64,000 nucleotides of DNA from a virus. The notes beneath the pieces are model-generated. The model saw nothing but the letters and a program-made list of their open reading frames with translations. It ran no database searches and was not told where the DNA came from. The translations under genes were made by a program, and so were the position numbers. Location: IMG/VR virus record IMGVR_UViG_3300023180_000036, positions 18,463 to 82,462 of that record. One strand, given 5' to 3'. Positions 15,824 to 60,649 of this stretch are shown piece after piece (within the stretch, counting starts at the first letter, position 1; each line of letters starts with the position of its first letter).

Positions 15824-18800
15824 ATGTATGATTTAATAACCTATACAACAAATAAAGGGCAAAGTGGAACACTAGATCCGTCTAGTTCGCCAAGTATTAT
15901 AACAAGAACGATTGATTTTGATACAGTCTGGATTGATCTTTCTGTAGATTTAGAACAATCACCAAATCCAGAATATATTCGTGGTTGGTTTTTTGAACTT
16001 AATGAATTACCTGGATATAGTTTTTATCCAAATTCATCTGCAATTCAAACTGGATTAAATCCTCCAGAAAAAAGAATATTTACATCAAATCAGAAAATTA
16101 GATTATACATAGATTTAAATACTATGTTACAACTTGATGGTTTAAGACCTCATGACTTTGTTTTATCTACAGTTGTTGCAACATCAGAAGAAAATTTAAA
16201 AAGAGGAAATTGGATAGAAACTAATCGTTCCGATTTATTTTTTACCATATATGCAAATGGTAATCCTCCTGTGGAATTTTTGGATGTATTACCAGAAACT
16301 TTATTTGAATCAGATTTCGGAGAACCAACAAGAAGTCTTACTATAGACTCTGCCTATATTAATGGGATGAGGGTTGACTCTGCACATATTAGACACTTAG
16401 CATATGTAAATCTCTTAGAAGGCGATTCTGCTTATTTTACTAATGTTACAACTAATAAAATATTAACAGATTTGTTATCTGCAAATATTAATAGTGATAT
16501 ATCTATTTTATCTAATCTTAATATAGATTCTAATAAAATAATAGGTATAGGATCAGAAAATAGTGGTAATGTATTAGATTTAGACTATGATGAACCAACA
16601 GATAGAAATAATAGTATAGCTCTAACTTCAGTTCAATCTATTCATAATTTTTTAGATGTGAATAATAGTGAAGATAGTAATTATTGGGCTTTATATAATA
16701 ATTTAAATGCATATAGTGATTCAATTAATAGAAATAATGCAATATTTTTAATTGATGAAGATGGTACTGTTACAGCAAAAGCTATAAATGTAAATCAGTA
16801 TATTTTAGACAGTGATGGATTAAAATGGTCTAATGATAGTAATGCAAGAATATATTATGATAGTAATTTAAAATTATGGAAAATAGAACCTGGTTTATTT
16901 GAGATAGTAGATTCAGAACAAATTATTGAAAATAATCCTCTTTTATCTATTATATCAACTGGGAGAGACGGTCAGTTTTTATCTTTTGCAGAATCAGCAG
17001 AATCTTATTATTTAGATTATGCATTAAAAACCGGAAGATTTATAATAGATGAACAAACTTTGGCAGAGGAAAAAGATTATATTCCTGATACAGAATTAGA
17101 GTCTATGGATTCTAATGCTAAGTACATATATTATGATCGGTTTAGTAGATTTTCGCATCTTTATGATCAAGGAGTTACATTTCCACTTACTGATTCTGAT
17201 GCTCAACTTTTAGATTCTGATGCTCAAGTTTTAAGATATGATGAAACAACAAATTCAATATATGGCGATTTTGCTACAACGGCTTTTTCTGGAATTATAT
17301 CTCCTAAAAGATATGATACTTATAGAGTAAAAGCAACGTTTAATTCAACCACACCTACTGATTTTCCTATATTTTTAGTAGTTGCTCAATTAAAAATACG
17401 GGGAAAAGAATATACAATTAGTGCGTTCAGAAGACCTAAAGGAACTTTACAAACTTATGGAGATTATTTAGAAACTGGACAAATAATTACAGAACCTCCT
17501 TCATGGGGTTTAGTTTATAATTTTGGTCAAAAAGATGCATACTATTTTGATTTTGATTGGGTATCAAGAGGATCTGCACCGGCACCTGTTACACCAAATT
17601 TTGAAGGTGAAAGTACAAGCGATTGGGTTTCTTCTGGTCAGACAACTGTTTTTGCAGAAAAGGTTGGAAATGTAATAAGTGTTGTAACAAATCAGTTTGG
17701 TGATACTAATATTGAAAATTTTGAATTTAGAACTGGAATTGAATTAGATATTGAAAAAGCAATTGCTAACGGCAAAACTTTTCTTGCACCATTTTTAAAT
17801 GCAGAAACTTCTTATGGTTTTGGTGTTAAAGGGCAGAGTGGTGTTATTATATCAGATATAGCATTTGAAACAGAAGATCCTGAAAAGTATATATTTGATT
17901 TAAAAAATGATATAGTTTATACTTATATTTCCGAAAGAAATTTAACAGAAGGAAATTATCCTACAGTACCAGTTTTAGTTGAAAATGCGGGCTATTATGC
18001 TTTGGATAGTAGTGTTGGTGTTAGCGATATTATGAAAACAGGAAGATTCTTTTATAATGAAAGAACTAAGACACTATTTTGGAAAGATCCAGATAATACA
18101 TATAAACTTATACAGGAAGTAGATTTAAATAGAGACTTTTTAGGTAAATATATTGAACTAAGAGGCACAGGTTTAAATAATAATTCACCAGCATATCTTT
18201 ATATTAATAATGAACCTGATTATTTTGAATTTGATGAAAATCCAATTTTTTTAAATGGTTACCATGGCCATGGTAGAGGTTTGAATCTCACTATATTTGG
18301 AAATGATGGTACTAAAATTTCTTCTAATACTTATGATACTCATGGCGATTCTGCTAATTCCACATTACTAGCAGATGCTATAAACAATATGTCTAATGGT
18401 CAAATTGGAGCAATAACTTCTTATGACGCTTGGATTTCTAATGTAAATGATAAATTAAAAACTGCAGCATTAAGTCAAGGTTTAATGAAATTTTATAATG
18501 CACCAAAATTTCCAATTAGAAATCCCTATGCAGCAGTATTTCAAAAAACTGGAAGCGAAACTCCTAGATCACATGAAACAACTTCTGGAGATTCATCACT
18601 ATCACCACATGCAGATTTAAGTTTTCATATTACAAGAGGAACTTTCCATACTTATGGTCCAGAACAGCCAAATTCTTTATCGGCTTGGAATGGAAAAAAA
18701 GAAGCATGGATAGATGAAAACCATAATACAAAAATTAATCAAACTCTTATGCTTACAGAAGGTAGACGTAAGGGCATGGCTTTTGAGGAAACTTCTTTTA

Positions 18801-30576: not shown

Positions 30577-31173
30577 ATGGTAAAGAAAACAAAAAACGTA
30601 CACTATATTAATAATTCAGAATTTTCTCTGGCTATTGTTGATTATGTTAAAAAAGTTACTGTGGCAAAGGAAAGCAATGAAACTTTGCCTGTTGTCCCAG
30701 ATTATATAGCTAAAAGCTTTTTACAAATTGCTGAAAATTTATCCCATAAATCCAATTTTATTAGATATACATATCGTGAAGAAATGGTAATGGATGCAGT
30801 TGAAAACTGTTTAAAAGCAATAGAAAATTATGATATAAATGCAACAACAAGATCAGGTAAACCAAATGCTTTTGCTTATTTCACTCAAATTATATGGTAT
30901 GCTTTTTTACGAAGAATTACAAAAGAAAAGAAACAACAAGATATTAAAGAAAAATATTTAGCACAATCAGGAATTGATGCTTTCCTAGTAACAGAACTTG
31001 GTACAACAGACCCATCATCTCAAGTGGCTAATCACTTTATAGATACATTAAAAGATAGAATTGATAAAGTAAAAGCTTATGATACAGAAATTAAAACCTT
31101 TTCAAAGAAAATAAAAAATAAAAAGAAAAGAGCAATTAATGTAGACTCTGATTTATCGGATTTTTTGGAATAA
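30577..31173 (+). CDS. gp55: late-transcription sigma factor
   Basis: HYINN, NFIRYTYREEM, NAFAYFTQIIWYAFLRRI. Confidence 0.93.
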   Translation: MVKKTKNVHYINNSEFSLAIVDYVKKVTVAKESNETLPVVPDYIAKSFLQIAENLSHKSNFIRYTYREEMVMDAVENCLKAIENYDINATTRSGKPNAFAYFTQIIWYAFLRRITKEKKQQDIKEKYLAQSGIDAFLVTELGTTDPSSQVANHFIDTLKDRIDKVKAYDTEIKTFSKKIKNKKKRAINVDSDLSDFLE

Positions 31174-37178: not shown

Positions 37179-38327
37179 ATGATTTTGGATAATGAATTAA
37201 AACTTGATTATAGTGATGTTTTAATTAGACCTAAAAGAAGCACACTCGGATCACGTAAAGAAGTAGATTTAAATAGAAAGTTTACTTTTGCTAATTTGGG
37301 TGGGGCTAGAGAAAGTTCATATGATTATGATGGTGTTCCTATCATGGCAGCTAATATGGACGGTGTTGGTACTATGGAAATGGCTGATGAATTAAGTGAG
37401 CATTATAATATGTTTACTTGTCTTGTTAAGACATATAGCGCCGAAGAACTTATAGATTTTTTTAATCCAAGAGTTGACTTACGAACAGAATTTGTTGCCA
37501 TGAGTATTGGCATTACAAAAGCTGACAAAGAAAAGCTTGCTCAAGTTTATAACAAAACTCAAAGAAATCTGAAATATCTTTGTGTGGATGTGGCAAACGG
37601 ATATAGTGAGCGTTTTGTGCAGTTTATTAAGTTTCTTAGAGAACATTATCCTTTTCTTGTAATTATTGCAGGTAATGTAGTTACTGCAGATCAAACACAG
37701 GAGTTAATCTTAAATGGCGCTGATATTGTTAAAGTTGGTATTGGTCCTGGTAGCGTATGCACTACTAGGATACAGACTGGAGTGGGATATCCGCAACTTA
37801 GTGCGGTTATCGAATGTGCAGACGCAGCACATGGATTGGGTGGCCATATCATTGCTGATGGTGGTTGTACTTGTCCTGGTGATGTTGCTAAAGCCTTTGC
37901 TGCTGGTGCCGACTTTGTAATGCTAGGCGGTATGCTTGCAGGACACGATGAAGGCGGCGGTGAAATAATTACTAAGTACTATCAAAGCAACGAACTAAGA
38001 CCAGAACGTGATGATGGAATGAATGGAGAAATTCCTGAAAAAAATTGGTTTGAAGAAGTTATTAAAGAAAAGAAATTTGTTCAATTTTATGGTATGAGTA
38101 GTAAAGCTGCAAATGATAAACATTTTGGTGGTTTAAAGGAATATCGATCATCTGAAGGAAGAGAAGTTTTAATTCCATATCGTGGATCAGTTAAAAACAC
38201 CACTCAAGATATATTGGGTGGTATTCGATCTACATGTACATATGTAGGAGCAAGAAAATTAAAACAGCTAAGTAAGTGTACTACCTTTGTAAGATGTACA
38301 AATCAATTTAATAAAGTGTATGCTTAG
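37179..38327 (+). CDS. guaC: GMP reductase
   Basis: [49 protein letters not shown]. Confidence 0.92.
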
Positions 38328-39258: not shown

Positions 39259-39635
39259 ATCACTTTGATTATTTAAATAGTATTAATTATTCTAAAGAAA
39301 ATATAATGAAAGATAATTTGGATGAAAAAGCATATAATTCATTCATGGTTAATCGTGGATTATCTTATTTTAATGATACTGTTATATATGCCAATGAAAT
39401 GAATATGAATGCTCATATAGATTCAAAAATGCAATATGACTTCCTTAGAACTCTCATTAGAAAACGTAAAAGATTTTCTAAATGGACCAAAGAGGATAAA
39501 AACTTAGATGTTGACTTAATAAAAGAATATTACGGATATTCTAAAGAAAAAGCATATCAAGTGCTTCCTTTACTTACAAAAGAACAAATGGATTATATTA
39601 GTAAGAAGATGAGTAAAGGTGGCAAAAAACCGTAA
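39255..39635 (+). CDS. gp62: clamp loader small subunit
   Basis: FDYLNSIN, YNSFMVNRGLS, RKRFSKW, KEYYGYS. Confidence 0.9.
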   Translation: MNHFDYLNSINYSKENIMKDNLDEKAYNSFMVNRGLSYFNDTVIYANEMNMNAHIDSKMQYDFLRTLIRKRKRFSKWTKEDKNLDVDLIKEYYGYSKEKAYQVLPLLTKEQMDYISKKMSKGGKKP

Positions 39636-39646
39636 ATATAAGTTAT

Positions 39647-39654
39647 TATAAATA
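39647..39654 (+). promoter_or_regulatory. T4-type late promoter upstream of regA
   Basis: Intergenic TATAAATA. Confidence 0.65.
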
Positions 39655-39701
39655 GAAATATCATGATATAACTATAATAATAATTTACGTGAGTTGAAGA
39701 T

Positions 39702-40118
39702 ATGAATGAAGTCAATAATGAATTAGTGAAATGGACTCCAGAAACTATGCTGGAAGTTTCTCTAAATGAACCTGATGATTTTTTAAAGGTCAGAGAAACA
39801 CTCACCCGTATAGGGGTTGCATCTCGAAAAGAAAAAAAACTATTTCAGTCTTGTCATATATTACATAAACAAGGCAGATACTTTATAGTTCATTTTAAAG
39901 AACTATTTTTATTAGATGGTAAAAAATCTAATTTAGAAGAAGGCGATATTGCTAGAAGAAATACGATCGCTACTCTTATGTCAGACTGGGGCTTAGTAAC
40001 AATTCAAGAAGAAAGTAAAGCGCAGCCTTTATCCCCATTAAGACAAATTAAAATTATCCCATTTAAAGATAAACAAGAATGGGAGCTATGTCCAAAATAT
40101 AATATTGGAAGAAAATAG
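39702..40118 (+). CDS. regA: translational repressor RegA
   Basis: DDFLKVRETLTRIGVAS, QSCHILHKQGRYFIVHFKELF. Confidence 0.95.
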   Translation: MNEVNNELVKWTPETMLEVSLNEPDDFLKVRETLTRIGVASRKEKKLFQSCHILHKQGRYFIVHFKELFLLDGKKSNLEEGDIARRNTIATLMSDWGLVTIQEESKAQPLSPLRQIKIIPFKDKQEWELCPKYNIGRK

Positions 40119-40153
40119 AATATCAGCTATTCATTAAAGTAATAGCTTATTTT

Positions 40154-40161
40154 TATAAATA
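40154..40161 (+). promoter_or_regulatory. T4-type late promoter of hsp20
   Basis: TATAAATA 59 nt before the hsp20 ATG, after an AGCTATT/AATAGCT hairpin. Confidence 0.75.
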
Positions 40162-40223
40162 ATAGTGGATGCCAGAAATGGGTCCACTATTAATTCTTGC
40201 TTGACAAAAAGGAGAAAACAATG
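40161..40223 (+). promoter_or_regulatory. ROSE-like RNA thermometer in hsp20 5' UTR
   Basis: 5' hairpin with GAAA loop, then UUCUUGCUU pairing with AAGGAGAA (SD) with a bulged G: the U(U/C)GCU anti-SD motif of ROSE elements. Confidence 0.7.
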
Positions 40224-40694
40224 ACAGGCATACAAACACTTTTTCCACGTTCATCTTTTGTTGGTTTTGATCATCTATTTAATGAGTTAGAATACACAGC
40301 TAAACATTCAAAAGATCATTACCCCCCACATAATATTATTAAAACAGATGAAAACGATTATTTAATCGAGCTTGCTGTTGCAGGGTTTTCCAAAGATGAA
40401 CTAACAGTTGAAGTTAAAGATAGAACTTTAACAGTAACAGGAGAACACGAATCAAGAGGTCGTGAGTTTATACATCGTGGTATTAGCACGAAAAAGTTTA
40501 AGCGCACGTTCCGGCTGTCAGAGCACGTACACGTACACGGAGCAGATATTCAGGACGGTATTCTTGCAATAGAATTGAAGTACGTCGTTCCTGAAGAAAT
40601 GCGTCCTCGTAAAATTACAATTGGAAAATTTAACGAGGTCGAACATGACACAAGCAGTACTGGTAGCGCACAGCTACTTAACGAAAACAGCTGA
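40221..40694 (+). CDS. hsp20: small heat-shock protein (Hsp20 / IbpA family)
   Basis: VGFDHLF, YPPHNI, IELAVAGF, HRGISTKKFKRTFRL, DGILAIEL; start at ATG 40221 after AGGAG. Confidence 0.93.
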   Translation: MTGIQTLFPRSSFVGFDHLFNELEYTAKHSKDHYPPHNIIKTDENDYLIELAVAGFSKDELTVEVKDRTLTVTGEHESRGREFIHRGISTKKFKRTFRLSEHVHVHGADIQDGILAIELKYVVPEEMRPRKITIGKFNEVEHDTSSTGSAQLLNENS

Positions 40695-40872
40695 ACTGTT
40701 AATTGAGTTCTTTAAATCATTAAAACAAGCACGTAAACTAAACAAACTACAGCGCCAAACATACAACGAATTGATGGCTTTGTCTGATAAGGATTTAAAC
40801 GATATCGGAATCCATAGAGGTGATATTAGATATATCGCTTATCAGAATCAAAACCTGAAAGGGTGGGTATAA
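40645..40872 (+). CDS. DUF1127 (YjiS / CcaF1-like) small protein
   Basis: RQTYNELMALSDKDLNDIGIHRGDI; GAGG RBS before ATG 40645. Confidence 0.8.
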   Translation: MTQAVLVAHSYLTKTAELLIEFFKSLKQARKLNKLQRQTYNELMALSDKDLNDIGIHRGDIRYIAYQNQNLKGWV

Positions 40873-41072
40873 TGGTGGCACAAGTAACCCACATTTGGTG
40901 GTCACTTAGACAAGAACTGGTTTCAATGCTTTCTTCAGCGTGGAAATCATTTAACCACTTTGCATTAGTAGTTGGTCACTCACGTGCCGCAACACATTTG
41001 GCTAGAATGGGATACCATGAACAAGCCAAGAATGTTATGATGGAATTAAAGAAGCTGCAAAATAATCGCTAA
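40872..41072 (+). CDS. hypothetical small protein
   Basis: TAATG-coupled to DUF1127 gene; SRAATHLARMGYHEQAK. Confidence 0.7.
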   Translation: MVAQVTHIWWSLRQELVSMLSSAWKSFNHFALVVGHSRAATHLARMGYHEQAKNVMMELKKLQNNR

Positions 41073-41077
41073 TGTAT

Positions 41078-41085
41078 TATAAATA
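41078..41085 (+). promoter_or_regulatory. T4-type late promoter
   Basis: Intergenic TATAAATA. Confidence 0.7.
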
Positions 41086-41118
41086 AAACTTTATAATCAG
41101 AAGGCTTTAGTTAGCTCA

Positions 41119-41138
41119 GGGGGCGGGAAACCGCCCCT
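41119..41138 (+). other. GC-rich GAAA-tetraloop hairpin without U-tract
   Basis: GGGGGCGG-GAAA-CCGCCCCT followed by a CA-rich stretch. Confidence 0.75.
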
Positions 41139-41169
41139 CAGATCACACACAATCACAAGGAAAATAAAA

Positions 41170-41394
41170 ATGACAAATAAAAACCCATTTGAAATCAGAG
41201 CAGATATGCTCAAACTTGCAAAAGACTATATGGATCAACAGTATCATATGAATGTAGACTTTTGGAGACAACAGTTTGATACAAACAAAGCAACAGCTGA
41301 AGAATTTCAAAAAGCAATCCAAGAATATTATACAATGGATGATCTAATGGATAAAGCAAAAGAAATGTATTCTTTTGTTTCAAAGAAAGATTAA
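41170..41394 (+). CDS. hypothetical phage protein
   Basis: KNPFEIRADMLKLAKD...KAKEMYSFVS; AAGG RBS. Confidence 0.75.
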   Translation: MTNKNPFEIRADMLKLAKDYMDQQYHMNVDFWRQQFDTNKATAEEFQKAIQEYYTMDDLMDKAKEMYSFVSKKD

Positions 41395-41585: not shown

Positions 41586-44168
41586 TTGAATTCATTCTAC
41601 ACTTCAGTGAACCGTTATGGCAATTCCATTCTTTATCGTGGATATTCACCTAACGGTTCACCTATTAATCAACGCTATAAATTTAAACCAAAATTTTGGT
41701 TACCATCTAAAAATCCAACAGAGATAAAATCCTTTGATGGTACGAATATTGCACCAGTCGAATTTGAAAAAATGAGCGATGCTAAAGAATTTCTTGAGCA
41801 ATATTCGGAAATGGAAGGTGCAAAAATATATGGCACCCGTAATTATATTCATCAGTTTATTACAGAAAAATTTCCTGATGATATTAAATTTAATCCAAAA
41901 AATACAAATGTAGTTAATTTTGATATAGAAGTTGCTTCTGATGATGGTTTCCCTACACCAGAAGCTGCAGCTTATCCTATTATATCAATTGCGCTTAAAT
42001 CTAGTAAATCTTCCATATATCAAGTATGGGGTTTAGATAATTATGATCCGTCTAAAACTGAAATTAATTTAGATGGTGGACAAATCCAATATCATCAATT
42101 TAATTCAGAAGAAGCCATGATGGTTTCGTTTCTAACATACTGGACTAAAAATTATCCAGATATTATAACTGGCTGGAATACCAGATTTTTTGACATACCG
42201 TATCTCGTTAATCGGATCAAGATTATTGGAACACAGGAAGCTGCTAATAAATTATCACCGTGGAAACTTGTTAATGAAAGAAATACCACAATCATGGGTC
42301 GACCACAGGTTAACCATGAAATTGTTGGTATTCAACAAGCCGACTATCTTGAATTATTTAAAAAGTTTGGATACTCATATGGTACTCAAGAATCGTATAG
42401 ATTAGATCATGTTGCAAATACGGTACTTGGAGAAAAGAAATTATCTTATGAAGAACATGGTAATCTTTATACTTTATATAAACAAGATCATCAAAAATTT
42501 ATTGACTATAATATTAGAGATGTACAACTAATTGATAAAATGGATGCCAAGATGGGTCTTATTAATCTGGCTATGACTATGGCATATAGGGCTGGAACTA
42601 ATTTATCTGATACTTTTGGCACGACTTCAATTTGGGAATCTATCCTTTATCGCAGATTACTTTCTAAAAATATTGTTTCTCCTATTGAACAAATAAAAAG
42701 AGTTGCTTATGAAAATAATTCTAATCCCAATGTTATTGAAGGTGGTTATGTAAAAGATCCTCAAGTAGGAGCACACGATTGGGTAGTATCTTTTGATTTA
42801 AATTCTCTGTATCCAAATATTATTGTTCAATCTAACATATCACCGGAAACTATTATTCGCAATAAAACTTGGAGATTTTTCCCTCAAGGTGTTGATCATT
42901 ATCTAAACGGAGAAGATAAAATTGATGAAGAATTTTCTGTTTGTGCTAGTGGTGTTCCTTTTTCAAGAGAAAAACAGGGTATTATTCCAGAACTTATTGT
43001 GGATTATTATTCAGAAAGAACACAAATAAAGAAGAAAATGTTAGATGCAAAATCTCAGTATGAAAAAACAAAATCTTCATATCTCGAGTCTGAGATTAAT
43101 CAGCTAGAAAATAATCAGATGGCAATTAAAATTTTGCTTAATTCTCTTTATGGTGCTCTTGCTAATAAACACTTTAAATATTTTGATAATGCTCTTGCTG
43201 AAAGCGTAACTTTAACTGGTCAGCTTTCGATCAAGTGGGCGGAAAGAGCAATAAATGAAGAAATGAATAAAATCTTAAAAACAGAAAATACCGATTATGT
43301 TATAGCAATTGATACTGATTCTGTTTATATTAATTTTGGTCCTCTTATTGAAAAATTAAATCCTAAAGATCCCGTAAAAGCCATTGATAAATTATGTAAA
43401 GACCACTTTGAAAAAATTATTGCTATGGCATATGATAAACTATTTTACAGACTTAATGGTTATACTCCAAGAATGGAAATGGGTAGAGAAGTTATTGCAG
43501 ATCGTGGAATATGGACTGCTAAAAAACGCTATATACTTAACGTACATAATAACGAAGGAGTACAATACGCAGAACCTAAACTAAAAATGATGGGTATAGA
43601 AGCAATTAAATCTTCAACACCTCAAGTTGTAAGAGATAAATTCAGAGAAATATTTAAGATTATTATTAGTAGCACAGAAACGGAAACACGTAATTATATT
43701 AATAATTTTAAATCTGAATTTAAATCTTTACCTCCAGAAGCGGTCGCTTTTCCTAGAGGTGTTTCAGATATTAATAAATTTTCACATAATAAAAATATTT
43801 ATTGTAATTCTGCCCATTCTAAAAAATGGACAGAAGGTTCTAAACAAATAGATGTAAAAACAACACCTATTCATGTTCGTGGTGCTCTTTTATATAACTA
43901 TCATGTAAAAGATAAAGCTTTAGATAAAAAGTATATTATGATACAAAACGGAGAAAAAATTAAATTTACTTATATGAAACTTCCTAATCCTATTCGTGAA
44001 AATGTTATTTCTTTTCCAGATTATTTACCTGAAGAATTAAATTTACATAAATATGTGGACTATGATATGCAATTTGAAAAAACATTTATCGAACCTCTTA
44101 ACCCTATACTTGAAGCTGTAGGGTGGTCGGTAAAAGATGTTCAAACTTTGGAGGACTTTTTTGGATGA
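41586..44168 (+). CDS. gp43: family B DNA polymerase
   Basis: FDIE exonuclease, SFDLNSLYP, KILLNSLYG, DTDS; TTG start with GGAGG RBS. Confidence 0.96.
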   Translation: MNSFYTSVNRYGNSILYRGYSPNGSPINQRYKFKPKFWLPSKNPTEIKSFDGTNIAPVEFEKMSDAKEFLEQYSEMEGAKIYGTRNYIHQFITEKFPDDIKFNPKNTNVVNFDIEVASDDGFPTPEAAAYPIISIALKSSKSSIYQVWGLDNYDPSKTEINLDGGQIQYHQFNSEEAMMVSFLTYWTKNYPDIITGWNTRFFDIPYLVNRIKIIGTQEAANKLSPWKLVNERNTTIMGRPQVNHEIVGIQQADYLELFKKFGYSYGTQESYRLDHVANTVLGEKKLSYEEHGNLYTLYKQDHQKFIDYNIRDVQLIDKMDAKMGLINLAMTMAYRAGTNLSDTFGTTSIWESILYRRLLSKNIVSPIEQIKRVAYENNSNPNVIEGGYVKDPQVGAHDWVVSFDLNSLYPNIIVQSNISPETIIRNKTWRFFPQGVDHYLNGEDKIDEEFSVCASGVPFSREKQGIIPELIVDYYSERTQIKKKMLDAKSQYEKTKSSYLESEINQLENNQMAIKILLNSLYGALANKHFKYFDNALAESVTLTGQLSIKWAERAINEEMNKILKTENTDYVIAIDTDSVYINFGPLIEKLNPKDPVKAIDKLCKDHFEKIIAMAYDKLFYRLNGYTPRMEMGREVIADRGIWTAKKRYILNVHNNEGVQYAEPKLKMMGIEAIKSSTPQVVRDKFREIFKIIISSTETETRNYINNFKSEFKSLPPEAVAFPRGVSDINKFSHNKNIYCNSAHSKKWTEGSKQIDVKTTPIHVRGALLYNYHVKDKALDKKYIMIQNGEKIKFTYMKLPNPIRENVISFPDYLPEELNLHKYVDYDMQFEKTFIEPLNPILEAVGWSVKDVQTLEDFFG

Positions 44169-60264: not shown

Positions 60265-60334
60265 CATATTTACTACAATAAAAAATGATTAATAAATCTT
60301 ATAGTTATTAATCATCATATAATACTATATAATC

Positions 60335-60614
60335 TGTAGACGTTATAAAGACTATATGGACCTGGGGGCGGCACCCAGCAGCTCCACCATAAACACTTGA
60401 TAGAGGACGCTCGAAAATTCTGGGAAGCAGATAGGGAAGTAGCTACCTGATTCTGTGGAGAAATTCAAGTGTTTATGATGGGGCTGAAATAGGATCGACA
60501 TGTATTCTAGTTTACAAAATACAAATGCAAACGATAACTTTGCACCATCTGGTTACGCACTAGCTGCATAACACAGGGGGTTGGCCACTTACCTAGCAAC
60601 AGAAATAGTGGCAC
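60335..60614 (+). ncRNA. ssrA: circularly permuted two-piece tmRNA (alphaproteobacterial type); tag (A)ANDNFAPSGYALAA
   Basis: Acceptor piece: GGAC + T-arm CTGGG-GGCGGCA-CCCAG + CAGCTCC-A-CCA (ends 60389). Coding piece starts GGGGCTGAAATAGGATCGAC at 60480 and pairs with it including G3-U70. Tag frame 60527-60571. 3' ACCTAGCAACAGAA motif. TATAAT at 60328-60333. Outer boundaries approximate. Confidence 0.93.
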
Positions 60615-60649
60615 ATTAATTTTAAAAATTCATTAAGGGAATAAAACAA

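Follow-up and report, generated by a model that had tools for sequence, protein, structure and literature searches.

To our knowledge, RNA thermometers are known almost only from bacteria. ROSE-like elements, as defined in the available text of PMC3669281 and PMC11342760, carry a U(U/C)GCU sequence that is imperfectly paired to the Shine-Dalgarno (SD) sequence around a predicted bulged G in the 3'-proximal hairpin, are preceded by one or more stable 5' hairpins, and are followed by a small heat-shock gene. Those of Pseudomonas ibpA genes are short, with two hairpins in 61-62 nucleotides (nt); hairpin II alone confers thermoregulation, and a stabilising role has been discussed for hairpin I (Krajewski et al. 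2013, PMC3669281). Here we describe a leader of this form upstream of an hsp20 gene in a window of 64,000 nt (positions 18,463 to 82,462 of IMG/VR record IMGVR_UViG_3300023180_000036) from the genome of an uncultured, marine, T4-like phage. We consider it likely that this leader controls translation as a short ROSE-like element of two hairpins, that it is homologous to the Pseudomonas ibpA type (ROSE_3), and that it lies behind a phage late promoter.

Among phage-borne thermometers already in print, blyA of SPbeta has a fourU element (PMC10586365), and PMC11342760 mentions another that lies upstream of a sigma-70 gene in a Caudoviricetes genome. These resemble the window leader in being phage-encoded RNA thermometers, putatively so in the case of the leader, but they are of the fourU type, do not sit on a chaperone gene and, in the available text of the two papers, are not reported as a family conserved across phages as the window leader is. 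In agreement with the suspicion voiced in a preliminary description of this leader, the literature searched, which did not extend to supplementary candidate lists (PMC11342760 Table S1, Robo-Therm), yielded no description of a ROSE-like element in a phage. The available text of a paper on cyanophage small heat-shock proteins (sHsps) makes no mention of a thermometer, ROSE, an untranslated region or a promoter (PMC3827213).

The leader contains two hairpins, a number within the two to four of ROSE-like elements, and the 5' one is stable (Table 1). Hairpin 1 consists of AAUAGUGGAU (40161-40170), the bulged G40171, CCA, a GAAA loop, UGG and GUCCACUAUU, which extends to 40191, so that ten pairs, the bulge and three pairs precede the loop. 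In hairpin 2, the anti-SD sequence UUCUUGCUU (40194-40202) pairs with AAGGAGAA (40209-40216) across a loop of six bases (40203-40208). Specifically, U40194-U40198 (UUCUU) and C40200-U40202 (CUU) pair with A40209-A40216, and UUGCU at 40197-40201 lies opposite AAGGAG at 40209-40214 in the imperfect U(U/C)GCU:SD arrangement. G40199 is unpaired both in the predicted hairpin 2 and in the RNAalifold consensus, and the bulge is therefore present by prediction. The open reading frame (ORF) directly 3' of the leader belongs to the HSP20 family according to both Pfam and PHROG. The preliminary description had already placed the late box, the arms, bulged G and CCA-GAAA-UGG of hairpin 1, and the AUG where we find them. 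Its pairing of UUCUUGCUU with AAGGAGAA around the bulged G also stands, but hairpin 2 ends at 40216 and not, as it stated, at 40217. Both hairpins share a local motif in which 5'-U-G-C-3' faces 3'-G-G-5' as a U.G wobble, a bulged G and a C-G pair. In hairpin 1, where there is no SD, the motif is conserved from cyanophages through to Pseudomonas ROSE_3.

An 87-nt segment comprising the leader has a folding energy of -22.4 kcal/mol (z -5.05), and 0 of 200 shuffled sequences are as stable. This low energy is due to hairpin 1, which is the only one of the two hairpins beyond chance in the window sequence taken alone. Hairpin 2 is weak by itself, and the case therefore rests on comparison.

A scan of IMG/VR with the Hsp20 protein gave at least 586 confirmed relatives, of which the best 80 (80-91% amino-acid identity) were used. 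All 81 leaders of this clade, the window included, keep the same anatomy: (A/U)UCUUGCU(U), a variable loop of 4-7 nt, and AAGGAG followed after 6-8 bases by the start codon. UUGCU is present in all 25 unique clade leaders, 21 of which have a spacing of 6 nt between GGAG and the start; the sequence of hairpin 1 varies widely. RNAalifold, given 53 distinct 85-nt leaders, recovers hairpin 2 exactly, including its bulged G, and a covariance model built from the same 53 leaders (R1) finds one match in each of 82 sources.

The clade structural alignment, which has 54 distinct rows, was fitted to the structure and is hence biased in its favour. In this alignment 99.1% of the cells are paired, versus 85.6% in shuffles (0 of 500 reach the observed value), and sliding the partners by 1-3 columns leaves 44-58% paired. 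Seven of the nine pairs of hairpin 1 change on both sides, with 98.4% of cells paired. For hairpin 2 the figure is 99.8%, and the pairs flanking the bulged G40199 are paired in every one of the 54 sequences. Covariation in hairpin 2 is seen at its two outer pairs, one of which is A-U in 41 rows, U-A in 11 and G-U in 1, and the other U-A in 53 and A-U in 1. Despite the manner in which the alignment was made, the slid controls and the diversity of pair types speak for a real signal.

The same two hairpins can also be recognised by eye before hsp20 in Methylophilales phage Melnitz-3, Pelagibacter podophage HTVC115P, Synechococcus phages QB2 and S-RIM2, Sinorhizobium jumbo phage Phosso, Agrobacterium jumbo phage Atu_ph07 and phage C48C1. 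In these leaders either UUGCU or UCGCU faces the SD, and UCGCU is the form in most cyanophage leaders. Two further IMG/VR scans supplied 80 cyanophage-type loci and 80 loci that are HTVC115P-type or more distant, of which 78 and 67, respectively, match a loose pattern. Among the cyanophage-type loci, the match in L153 is false, as it falls within a coding sequence; L144 is truncated; and GGAG is replaced by GGGG in L170. In the other set, three loci have no upstream sequence, eight (L221, L225-L230 and L250, at about 340-390) bear an ACGCU variant opposite GGAGG, and L224 and L233 have no leader adjoining hsp20. A stricter test of anatomy is passed by 229 of 248 loci (81/81 in the clade, 74/80 cyanophage-type, 68/80 HTVC115P-type or more distant, and 6/7 others). 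The leader is, judged from these loci, general to phage hsp20 and not special to this phage; its carriers comprise cyanophages, a pelagipodophage, an OM43 phage and jumbo phages of rhizobia. The conservation of the motif in related phage hsp20 leaders and the covariation across them, both of which the preliminary description had set as tests of its proposal, are thus borne out.

Two side observations come from these scans. The ACGCU-variant leaders are preceded by a hairpin of the form GAUC-G-CCAU...UGG-GAUC, and a phage-derived covariance model, R2, scores L250 at 22.0 bits and L221 at 13.9 bits. In L224 (91-151) and L233 (82-141), R2 matches of 36.7 and 23.9 bits lie about 250-300 bases 5' of hsp20, before another short ORF; a leader in this position would control a two-gene unit.

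Of the 59 rows in a broad structural alignment, one is probably false; 93.3% of the cells are paired, and 15 of the 17 pairs change on both sides, including all nine pairs of hairpin 1, which covary. As the pair beside the bulged G, 29 rows have C-G and 26 have U.G, and so display the U/C alternation of the published U(U/C)GCU motif. Covariation on this scale, as read from the aligned sequences, rules out a chance match. Scores from R1 on cyanophage, HTVC115P and Atu_ph07 leaders are 16-21 bits and not significant alone, since small searches with this model give off-target matches of 18-20 bits; for these leaders the argument rests on position and anatomy. With default filters, R1 recovered no leader in 23 of the 81 sources given. 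R2 scores Atu_ph07 at 39.7, HTVC115P at 37.1 and Phosso at 29.1 bits, and in the window it finds a single copy at 79.8 bits, the next match having 17.3 bits (E 1.1). The best 120 homologous proteins are close metagenomic phage-like proteins only.

The leader can be linked to a known Rfam family through hairpin 1. The consensus hairpin I of ROSE_3 (RF02523, gathering score 43 bits), GGGAU-G-CCG...CGG-GUCCC, aligns with GGAU-G-CCA...UGG-GUCC of the window, and in sequence hairpin 1 is plainly recognisable as ROSE_3 hairpin I. Sub-threshold ROSE_3 matches in the correct place were obtained for L072 (36.8 bits), L083 (Melnitz-3, 34.1), L088 (Atu_ph07, 28.0), L081 (C48C1, 26.8), L013 (26.2), L032 (26.1), L030 (25.7) and L085 (QB2, 18.0); no ROSE_3 match was returned for 7 of 12 loci in one run and 3 of 6 in another. 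The bacterial leaders compared, which served as controls and scored as expected, were those of a Pseudomonas ibpA-type locus (69.2 bits on ROSE_3) and of Salmonella ibpA (94.9 bits on ROSE_2, RF01832). The full-score ROSE_3 match of 69.2 bits lies at 498-564, before an ibpA-like gene, in a record labelled 'UNVERIFIED: Pseudomonas phage Y7' (L089, OQ572409.1, unannotated, 22.6 kb), which may be host rather than phage DNA. A match to freshwater-2 (RF02980) at 40127-40223 (+) was set aside: it scores 18.8 bits versus a cut-off of 49.9, derives mainly from the AAAGGAGAAAAC-AAUG end, and a literature search for the name yielded unrelated environmental papers only.

The likeness to the Pseudomonas ROSE_3 elements is not confined to hairpin 1. 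Both have two hairpins with a short spacer between them, an AUG outside the helix, and a gene for an IbpA-like sHsp downstream; hairpin I has the U-G-C / G-G core with its bulged G within GGAU-G-CC...GG-GUCC, and hairpin II sets U(U/C)GCU opposite the SD. The leaders are also of comparable length, 54 nt for the window, if transcription starts at 40167, versus the published 61-62 nt (PMC3669281). Unlike those elements, the window leader belongs to a phage genome and has a phage late box in place of a heat-shock promoter; its hairpin II, rich in A-U, is without the G-C clamps that flank the helix in the description of Pseudomonas (PMC3669281). Bradyrhizobium hspA ROSE1 and the ibpA elements of E. 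coli and Salmonella share with the window U(U/C)GCU and a bulged G in the last hairpin before an sHsp gene, but have three to four hairpins instead of two (PMC3669281). As far as sequence comparison goes, every literature-defined sequence and structure feature of ROSE-like thermometers is present and conserved in the leader. These features, the conservation and the likeness to ROSE_3 hairpin I together support the ROSE-type anatomy put forward in the preliminary description.

The T4 late box spans positions -13 to -6 relative to the transcription start (PMC1524935). With TATAAATA at this place, the predicted start falls at G40167. Because this position is inside the 5' arm of hairpin 1, only the core of that hairpin would form in the late transcript, and the outer six pairs of the long form could form only in read-through RNA from regA. 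In 51 of the 54 distinct clade leaders, 9-12 nt separate the end of the late box from the bulged G of hairpin 1; the box is TATAAATA in 38, TATATATA in 11 and TATAGATA in 2, and three leaders have none. TATAAATA is not enriched in the window (16 matches versus 15.75 expected), and a second copy is found at 39647-39654 (+), about 50 bases 5' of regA. Cyanophage leaders have NTAAATA-type boxes at the same place, and HTVC115P-like leaders a TATAAT-type box. Such variety fits each phage using its own promoter while keeping the sensor. The preliminary description had argued that the phage replaced the host heat-shock promoter with its own gp55 promoter, and this idea agrees with the fixed distance of the box, the gp55-like factor encoded in the window and the different box of the HTVC115P-like podophages.

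We propose the following sequence of events. Late in infection, RNA polymerase with gp55 would start at about G40167, and the late RNA would open with the stable 5' hairpin core. In the next, marginally stable hairpin, UUCUUGCUU would hold the SD within AAGGAGAA by means of a U.G wobble, the bulged G40199 and a C-G pair. At low temperature, the SD would be kept in the helix in vivo and little Hsp20 would be made. Upon warming, the helix would open and the 30S subunit would bind, so that the supply of Hsp20 follows the demand for a holdase as virions are assembled. In the folding model, a transcript started at 40167 has hairpin 2 in its minimum free energy (MFE) structure at 4-20 °C, and its SD is paired with a predicted probability of about 0.9 at 10-15 °C and of about 0.5 at 37 °C.

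A comparison of 82 unique hairpin-2 segments provides an indication of how stability may be maintained. An extra outer pair is present in 32 of 32 UUGCU types and in 9 of 50 UCGCU types, and the median stabilities at 37 °C are -3.6 and -3.1 kcal/mol, respectively; these counts ignore shared ancestry, which detracts from them as evidence of compensation. When UUGCU is changed to UCGCU in silico, the value becomes -6.5 kcal/mol, but the reverse change from UCGCU to UUGCU does not bring the expected loss (-3.5 versus -3.1 kcal/mol). The predicted values are suggestive, and no more, of selection for a weak SD helix.

Several further observations count against a ROSE-like thermosensor at this locus. 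ROSE (RF00435), ROSE_2 and ROSE_3 give no match at E <= 10 when a 281-nt region with the window leader is searched with all Rfam families, RF00435 gives none across the whole 82-kb record, and 20 relatives have no Rfam match at gathering scores. No phage leader reaches the 43-bit cut-off of ROSE_3, the relatives scoring 18-37 bits, and the check with Rfam ROSE models that the preliminary description had recommended therefore came out negative. The reverse test is likewise weak, as R2 gives the Pseudomonas element 15.5 bits (E 0.9). Given that the literature-defined features are present and that the Rfam scores are below the cut-off, we call the leader a divergent phage branch of the short ROSE-like kind.

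At 37 °C hairpin 2 alone has only -3.8 kcal/mol (z -1.56), a stability matched by 16 of 200 shuffles. The isolated hairpin is predicted to be mostly closed even at 50 °C. The MFE structure of a longer RNA at 37 °C pairs UGCUUG at 40198-40203 with CAGGCA at 40225-40230 in place of hairpin 2, and transcripts started upstream favour this pairing between the anti-SD and codons 2-3 from 15 °C up. The predicted temperature response comes from folding, and any hairpin melts in a folding program. Moreover, the six SD pairs of hairpin 2 are invariant in the clade and so provide no covariation of their own, as is expected for a ribosome-binding site. Four salt-marsh RNA libraries have contigs that cover hsp20, one of which spans 39857-40270, from regA across the leader, and one RNA-library contig of a relative carries UAUUCUUGCUUGAUCAAAAGGAGA (anti-SD plus SD) upstream of 40215; being contigs, these data give no start, strand or level, and may include carried-over DNA. 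Depth over hsp20 exceeds that over regA in four of four RNA runs, a figure that cannot rank genes and was not used.

Could the same structures serve a purpose that has nothing to do with temperature? The 5' hairpin might protect the late mRNA from decay and the weak SD helix might damp translation to a fixed level, with temperature across the host's range being irrelevant. Marine hosts see a narrow temperature range, timing is already given by late-promoter control, and the predicted closure of isolated hairpin 2 up to 50 °C is in keeping with such a constitutive device, as is the stabilising role discussed for hairpin I in PMC3669281. However, all clades retain the bulged G and the U.G features to which validated ROSE helices owe their lability, compensating changes appear to hold the predicted stability of the helix in a narrow range, and leaders of the same anatomy are thermoresponsive in Pseudomonas (PMC3669281). 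For these reasons we regard a constitutive device as unlikely. It is very improbable that the long form of hairpin 1 acts mainly to distinguish classes of transcript, with late transcripts starting in its 5' arm and so differing from early ones, and in addition as a terminator or barrier to read-through from regA. The predicted start does lie in the 5' arm, much as the late promoters of T4 gene e sit within the DNA for the 5' strand of an inhibitory leader hairpin (PMC3014915), and U-rich sequence follows hairpin 1 in many relatives. At T4 gene e, though, the late start removes the inhibitory structure (PMC3014915), whereas in the window the SD helix is wholly 3' of the predicted start and would stay in the late transcript; the hairpin 1 core and the SD helix would form in both transcript classes. 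Furthermore, Pseudomonas and phages whose promoters are of other types retain the same hairpin I, and the RNA-library contig described above crosses the leader from regA. An intrinsic terminator, which calls for a G+C-rich stem with a run of T directly behind it, was rejected at hairpin 1, as a scan of 39500-41300 gave no terminator-like site at 40161-40200.

The conserved stretch at the start codon (AUAACAAUGACAGGC in most relatives, AAAACAAUGACAGGC in the window) might alternatively be bound by RegA, whose gene lies just 5' of the leader with a strong Pfam match (Table 1), such that RegA would be the real regulator with or without a hairpin. RegA sites of T4 are A+U-rich with a 5' A tract and include the AUG (PMC3014915), and codons 2-6 of hsp20 show almost no synonymous change among 61 coding sequences. 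Yet the same source describes RegA sites as unstructured (PMC3014915), an operator leaves the anti-SD, the bulged G and hairpin 1 unexplained, and an HTVC115P-like podophage and jumbo phages have the leader as well, though these may carry a regA of their own. We therefore give RegA as the real regulator only a slender chance, although RegA might bind over the start codon as an additional layer of control. Finally, TTGCTTGA is almost certainly neither a MotA-box middle promoter nor a chance match. The MotA box is given as TGCTTtA (PMC9004378) and the window has TGCTTGA, but there is no TAnnnT-type -10 element at the usual distance, where the SD and AUG come next, and the G after TGCTT is not kept (L013, L032, L072). 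A MotA box was rejected on the absence of that element and because the motif always faces the SD, also in podophage, jumbo-phage and Pseudomonas leaders; a chance match is excluded by covariation.

The source record is an IMG/VR contig of 82,462 bases with a CheckV completeness of 42%, and at the DNA level regA shares about 70% identity with its counterparts in Pelagibacter phage HTVC008M and Methylophilales phage Melnitz. The sole match to Rfam within the window at gathering scores is a two-piece (permuted) transfer-messenger RNA (tmRNA) gene at 60295-60615 (+), which scores 84.6 bits with alpha_tmRNA and 77.5 bits with tmRNA_permuted; this type hints at an alphaproteobacterial host. A 382-amino-acid ORF at 37179-38327 (+) resembles by eye, from its translation only, the GMP reductase / IMP dehydrogenase family. 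Between the regA stop codon and the late box, at 40125-40153 (+), a weak A-U-rich hairpin (AGCUAUU...AAUAGCU, then UAUUUUU) is predicted by folding but receives no call in the terminator scan. The main features are collected in Table 1.

Table 1. Coordinates of the hsp20 leader, its parts and nearby genes in the 64,000-nt window
Feature	Position	Strand	Basis or remark
Gp55-like late sigma factor	30577-31173		PHROG 234 E 1.6e-49
regA	39702-40118		Pfam Translat_reg E 5.4e-43
TATAAATA, T4-type late-promoter box	40154-40161	+	read in sequence
Hairpin 1, long form	40161-40191	+	folding; covariation; alignment with ROSE_3 hairpin I
Predicted late transcription start	40167	+	inferred from T4 box spacing; leader before AUG 54 nt
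Hairpin 1 core	40167-40185	+	GGAU, bulged G40171, CCA, GAAA loop, UGG, GUCC
Hairpin 2, putative thermosensor	40194-40216	+	folding, RNAalifold, covariation
Shine-Dalgarno AAGGAG	40209-40214	+	6 nt 5' of AUG
AUG start codon	40221-40223	+	outside hairpin 2
hsp20 (IbpA-like small heat-shock protein, 157 amino acids)	40221-40694	+	Pfam HSP20 E 2.3e-18; PHROG 432 'Hsp20 heat shock protein' E 6.2e-37
DUF1127 gene	40645-40872	+	Pfam E 1.1e-10; start overlaps hsp20 3' end
Small ORF after DUF1127 gene	40863-41072		
DNA polymerase ORF	41586-44168		

Within hsp20, codons 2-3 (ACA GGC) are invariant in 61 of 61 unique coding sequences and codons 4-6 are almost without synonymous change; the median entropy of four-fold codons elsewhere in the gene is 1.24 bits (n = 61). 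Nearly frozen synonymous sites recur in the same 61 sequences at codons 107, 109-110, 125 and 128-130. The frozen blocks correspond to 40224-40238, 40539-40550 and 40593-40610 of the window, the later ones lying just 5' of the overlapping DUF1127 gene. Of these blocks, the first is able to pair with the anti-SD (GCUUG:CAGGC), or could serve as a RegA site.

We also put forward, more tentatively and as a proposal that may well fail, a reading that joins these observations. Phages of cyanobacteria, SAR11, OM43 and rhizobia would share the ROSE-hsp20 cassette as a single mobile module, to which the 'core' hsp20 of cyanophages would also belong. Compensation, through either U.G with extra outer pairs or C-G without them, would keep the SD helix of every lineage equally close to marginal stability. 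Chaperone output in some of the most abundant ocean phages would then be set directly by water temperature, via a thermometer tuned colder than the bacterial ones, and the U-G-C / G-G motif of hairpin 1 would have a separate role of its own.

The leader represents a phage-borne ROSE-like element, a kind previously known in bacteria; its structure is conserved, and its temperature response is one that we infer from folding. On this reading, a classical bacterial type of heat-shock thermometer is carried, together with its chaperone gene, by many phages, in which the promoters in front of it are those of the phage and not of the heat-shock kind. This large phage branch of the family is missed by the Rfam ROSE_3 model. 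Carriers of the leader exist in culture, namely S-RIM2, QB2, Melnitz, HTVC115P and Atu_ph07, and hsp20 is a core gene in T4-like cyanophages (PMC3037559). If the element senses temperature, then the assembly of phage particles has a built-in temperature input that is independent of the host, and this would bear on the production of marine phages under warming.

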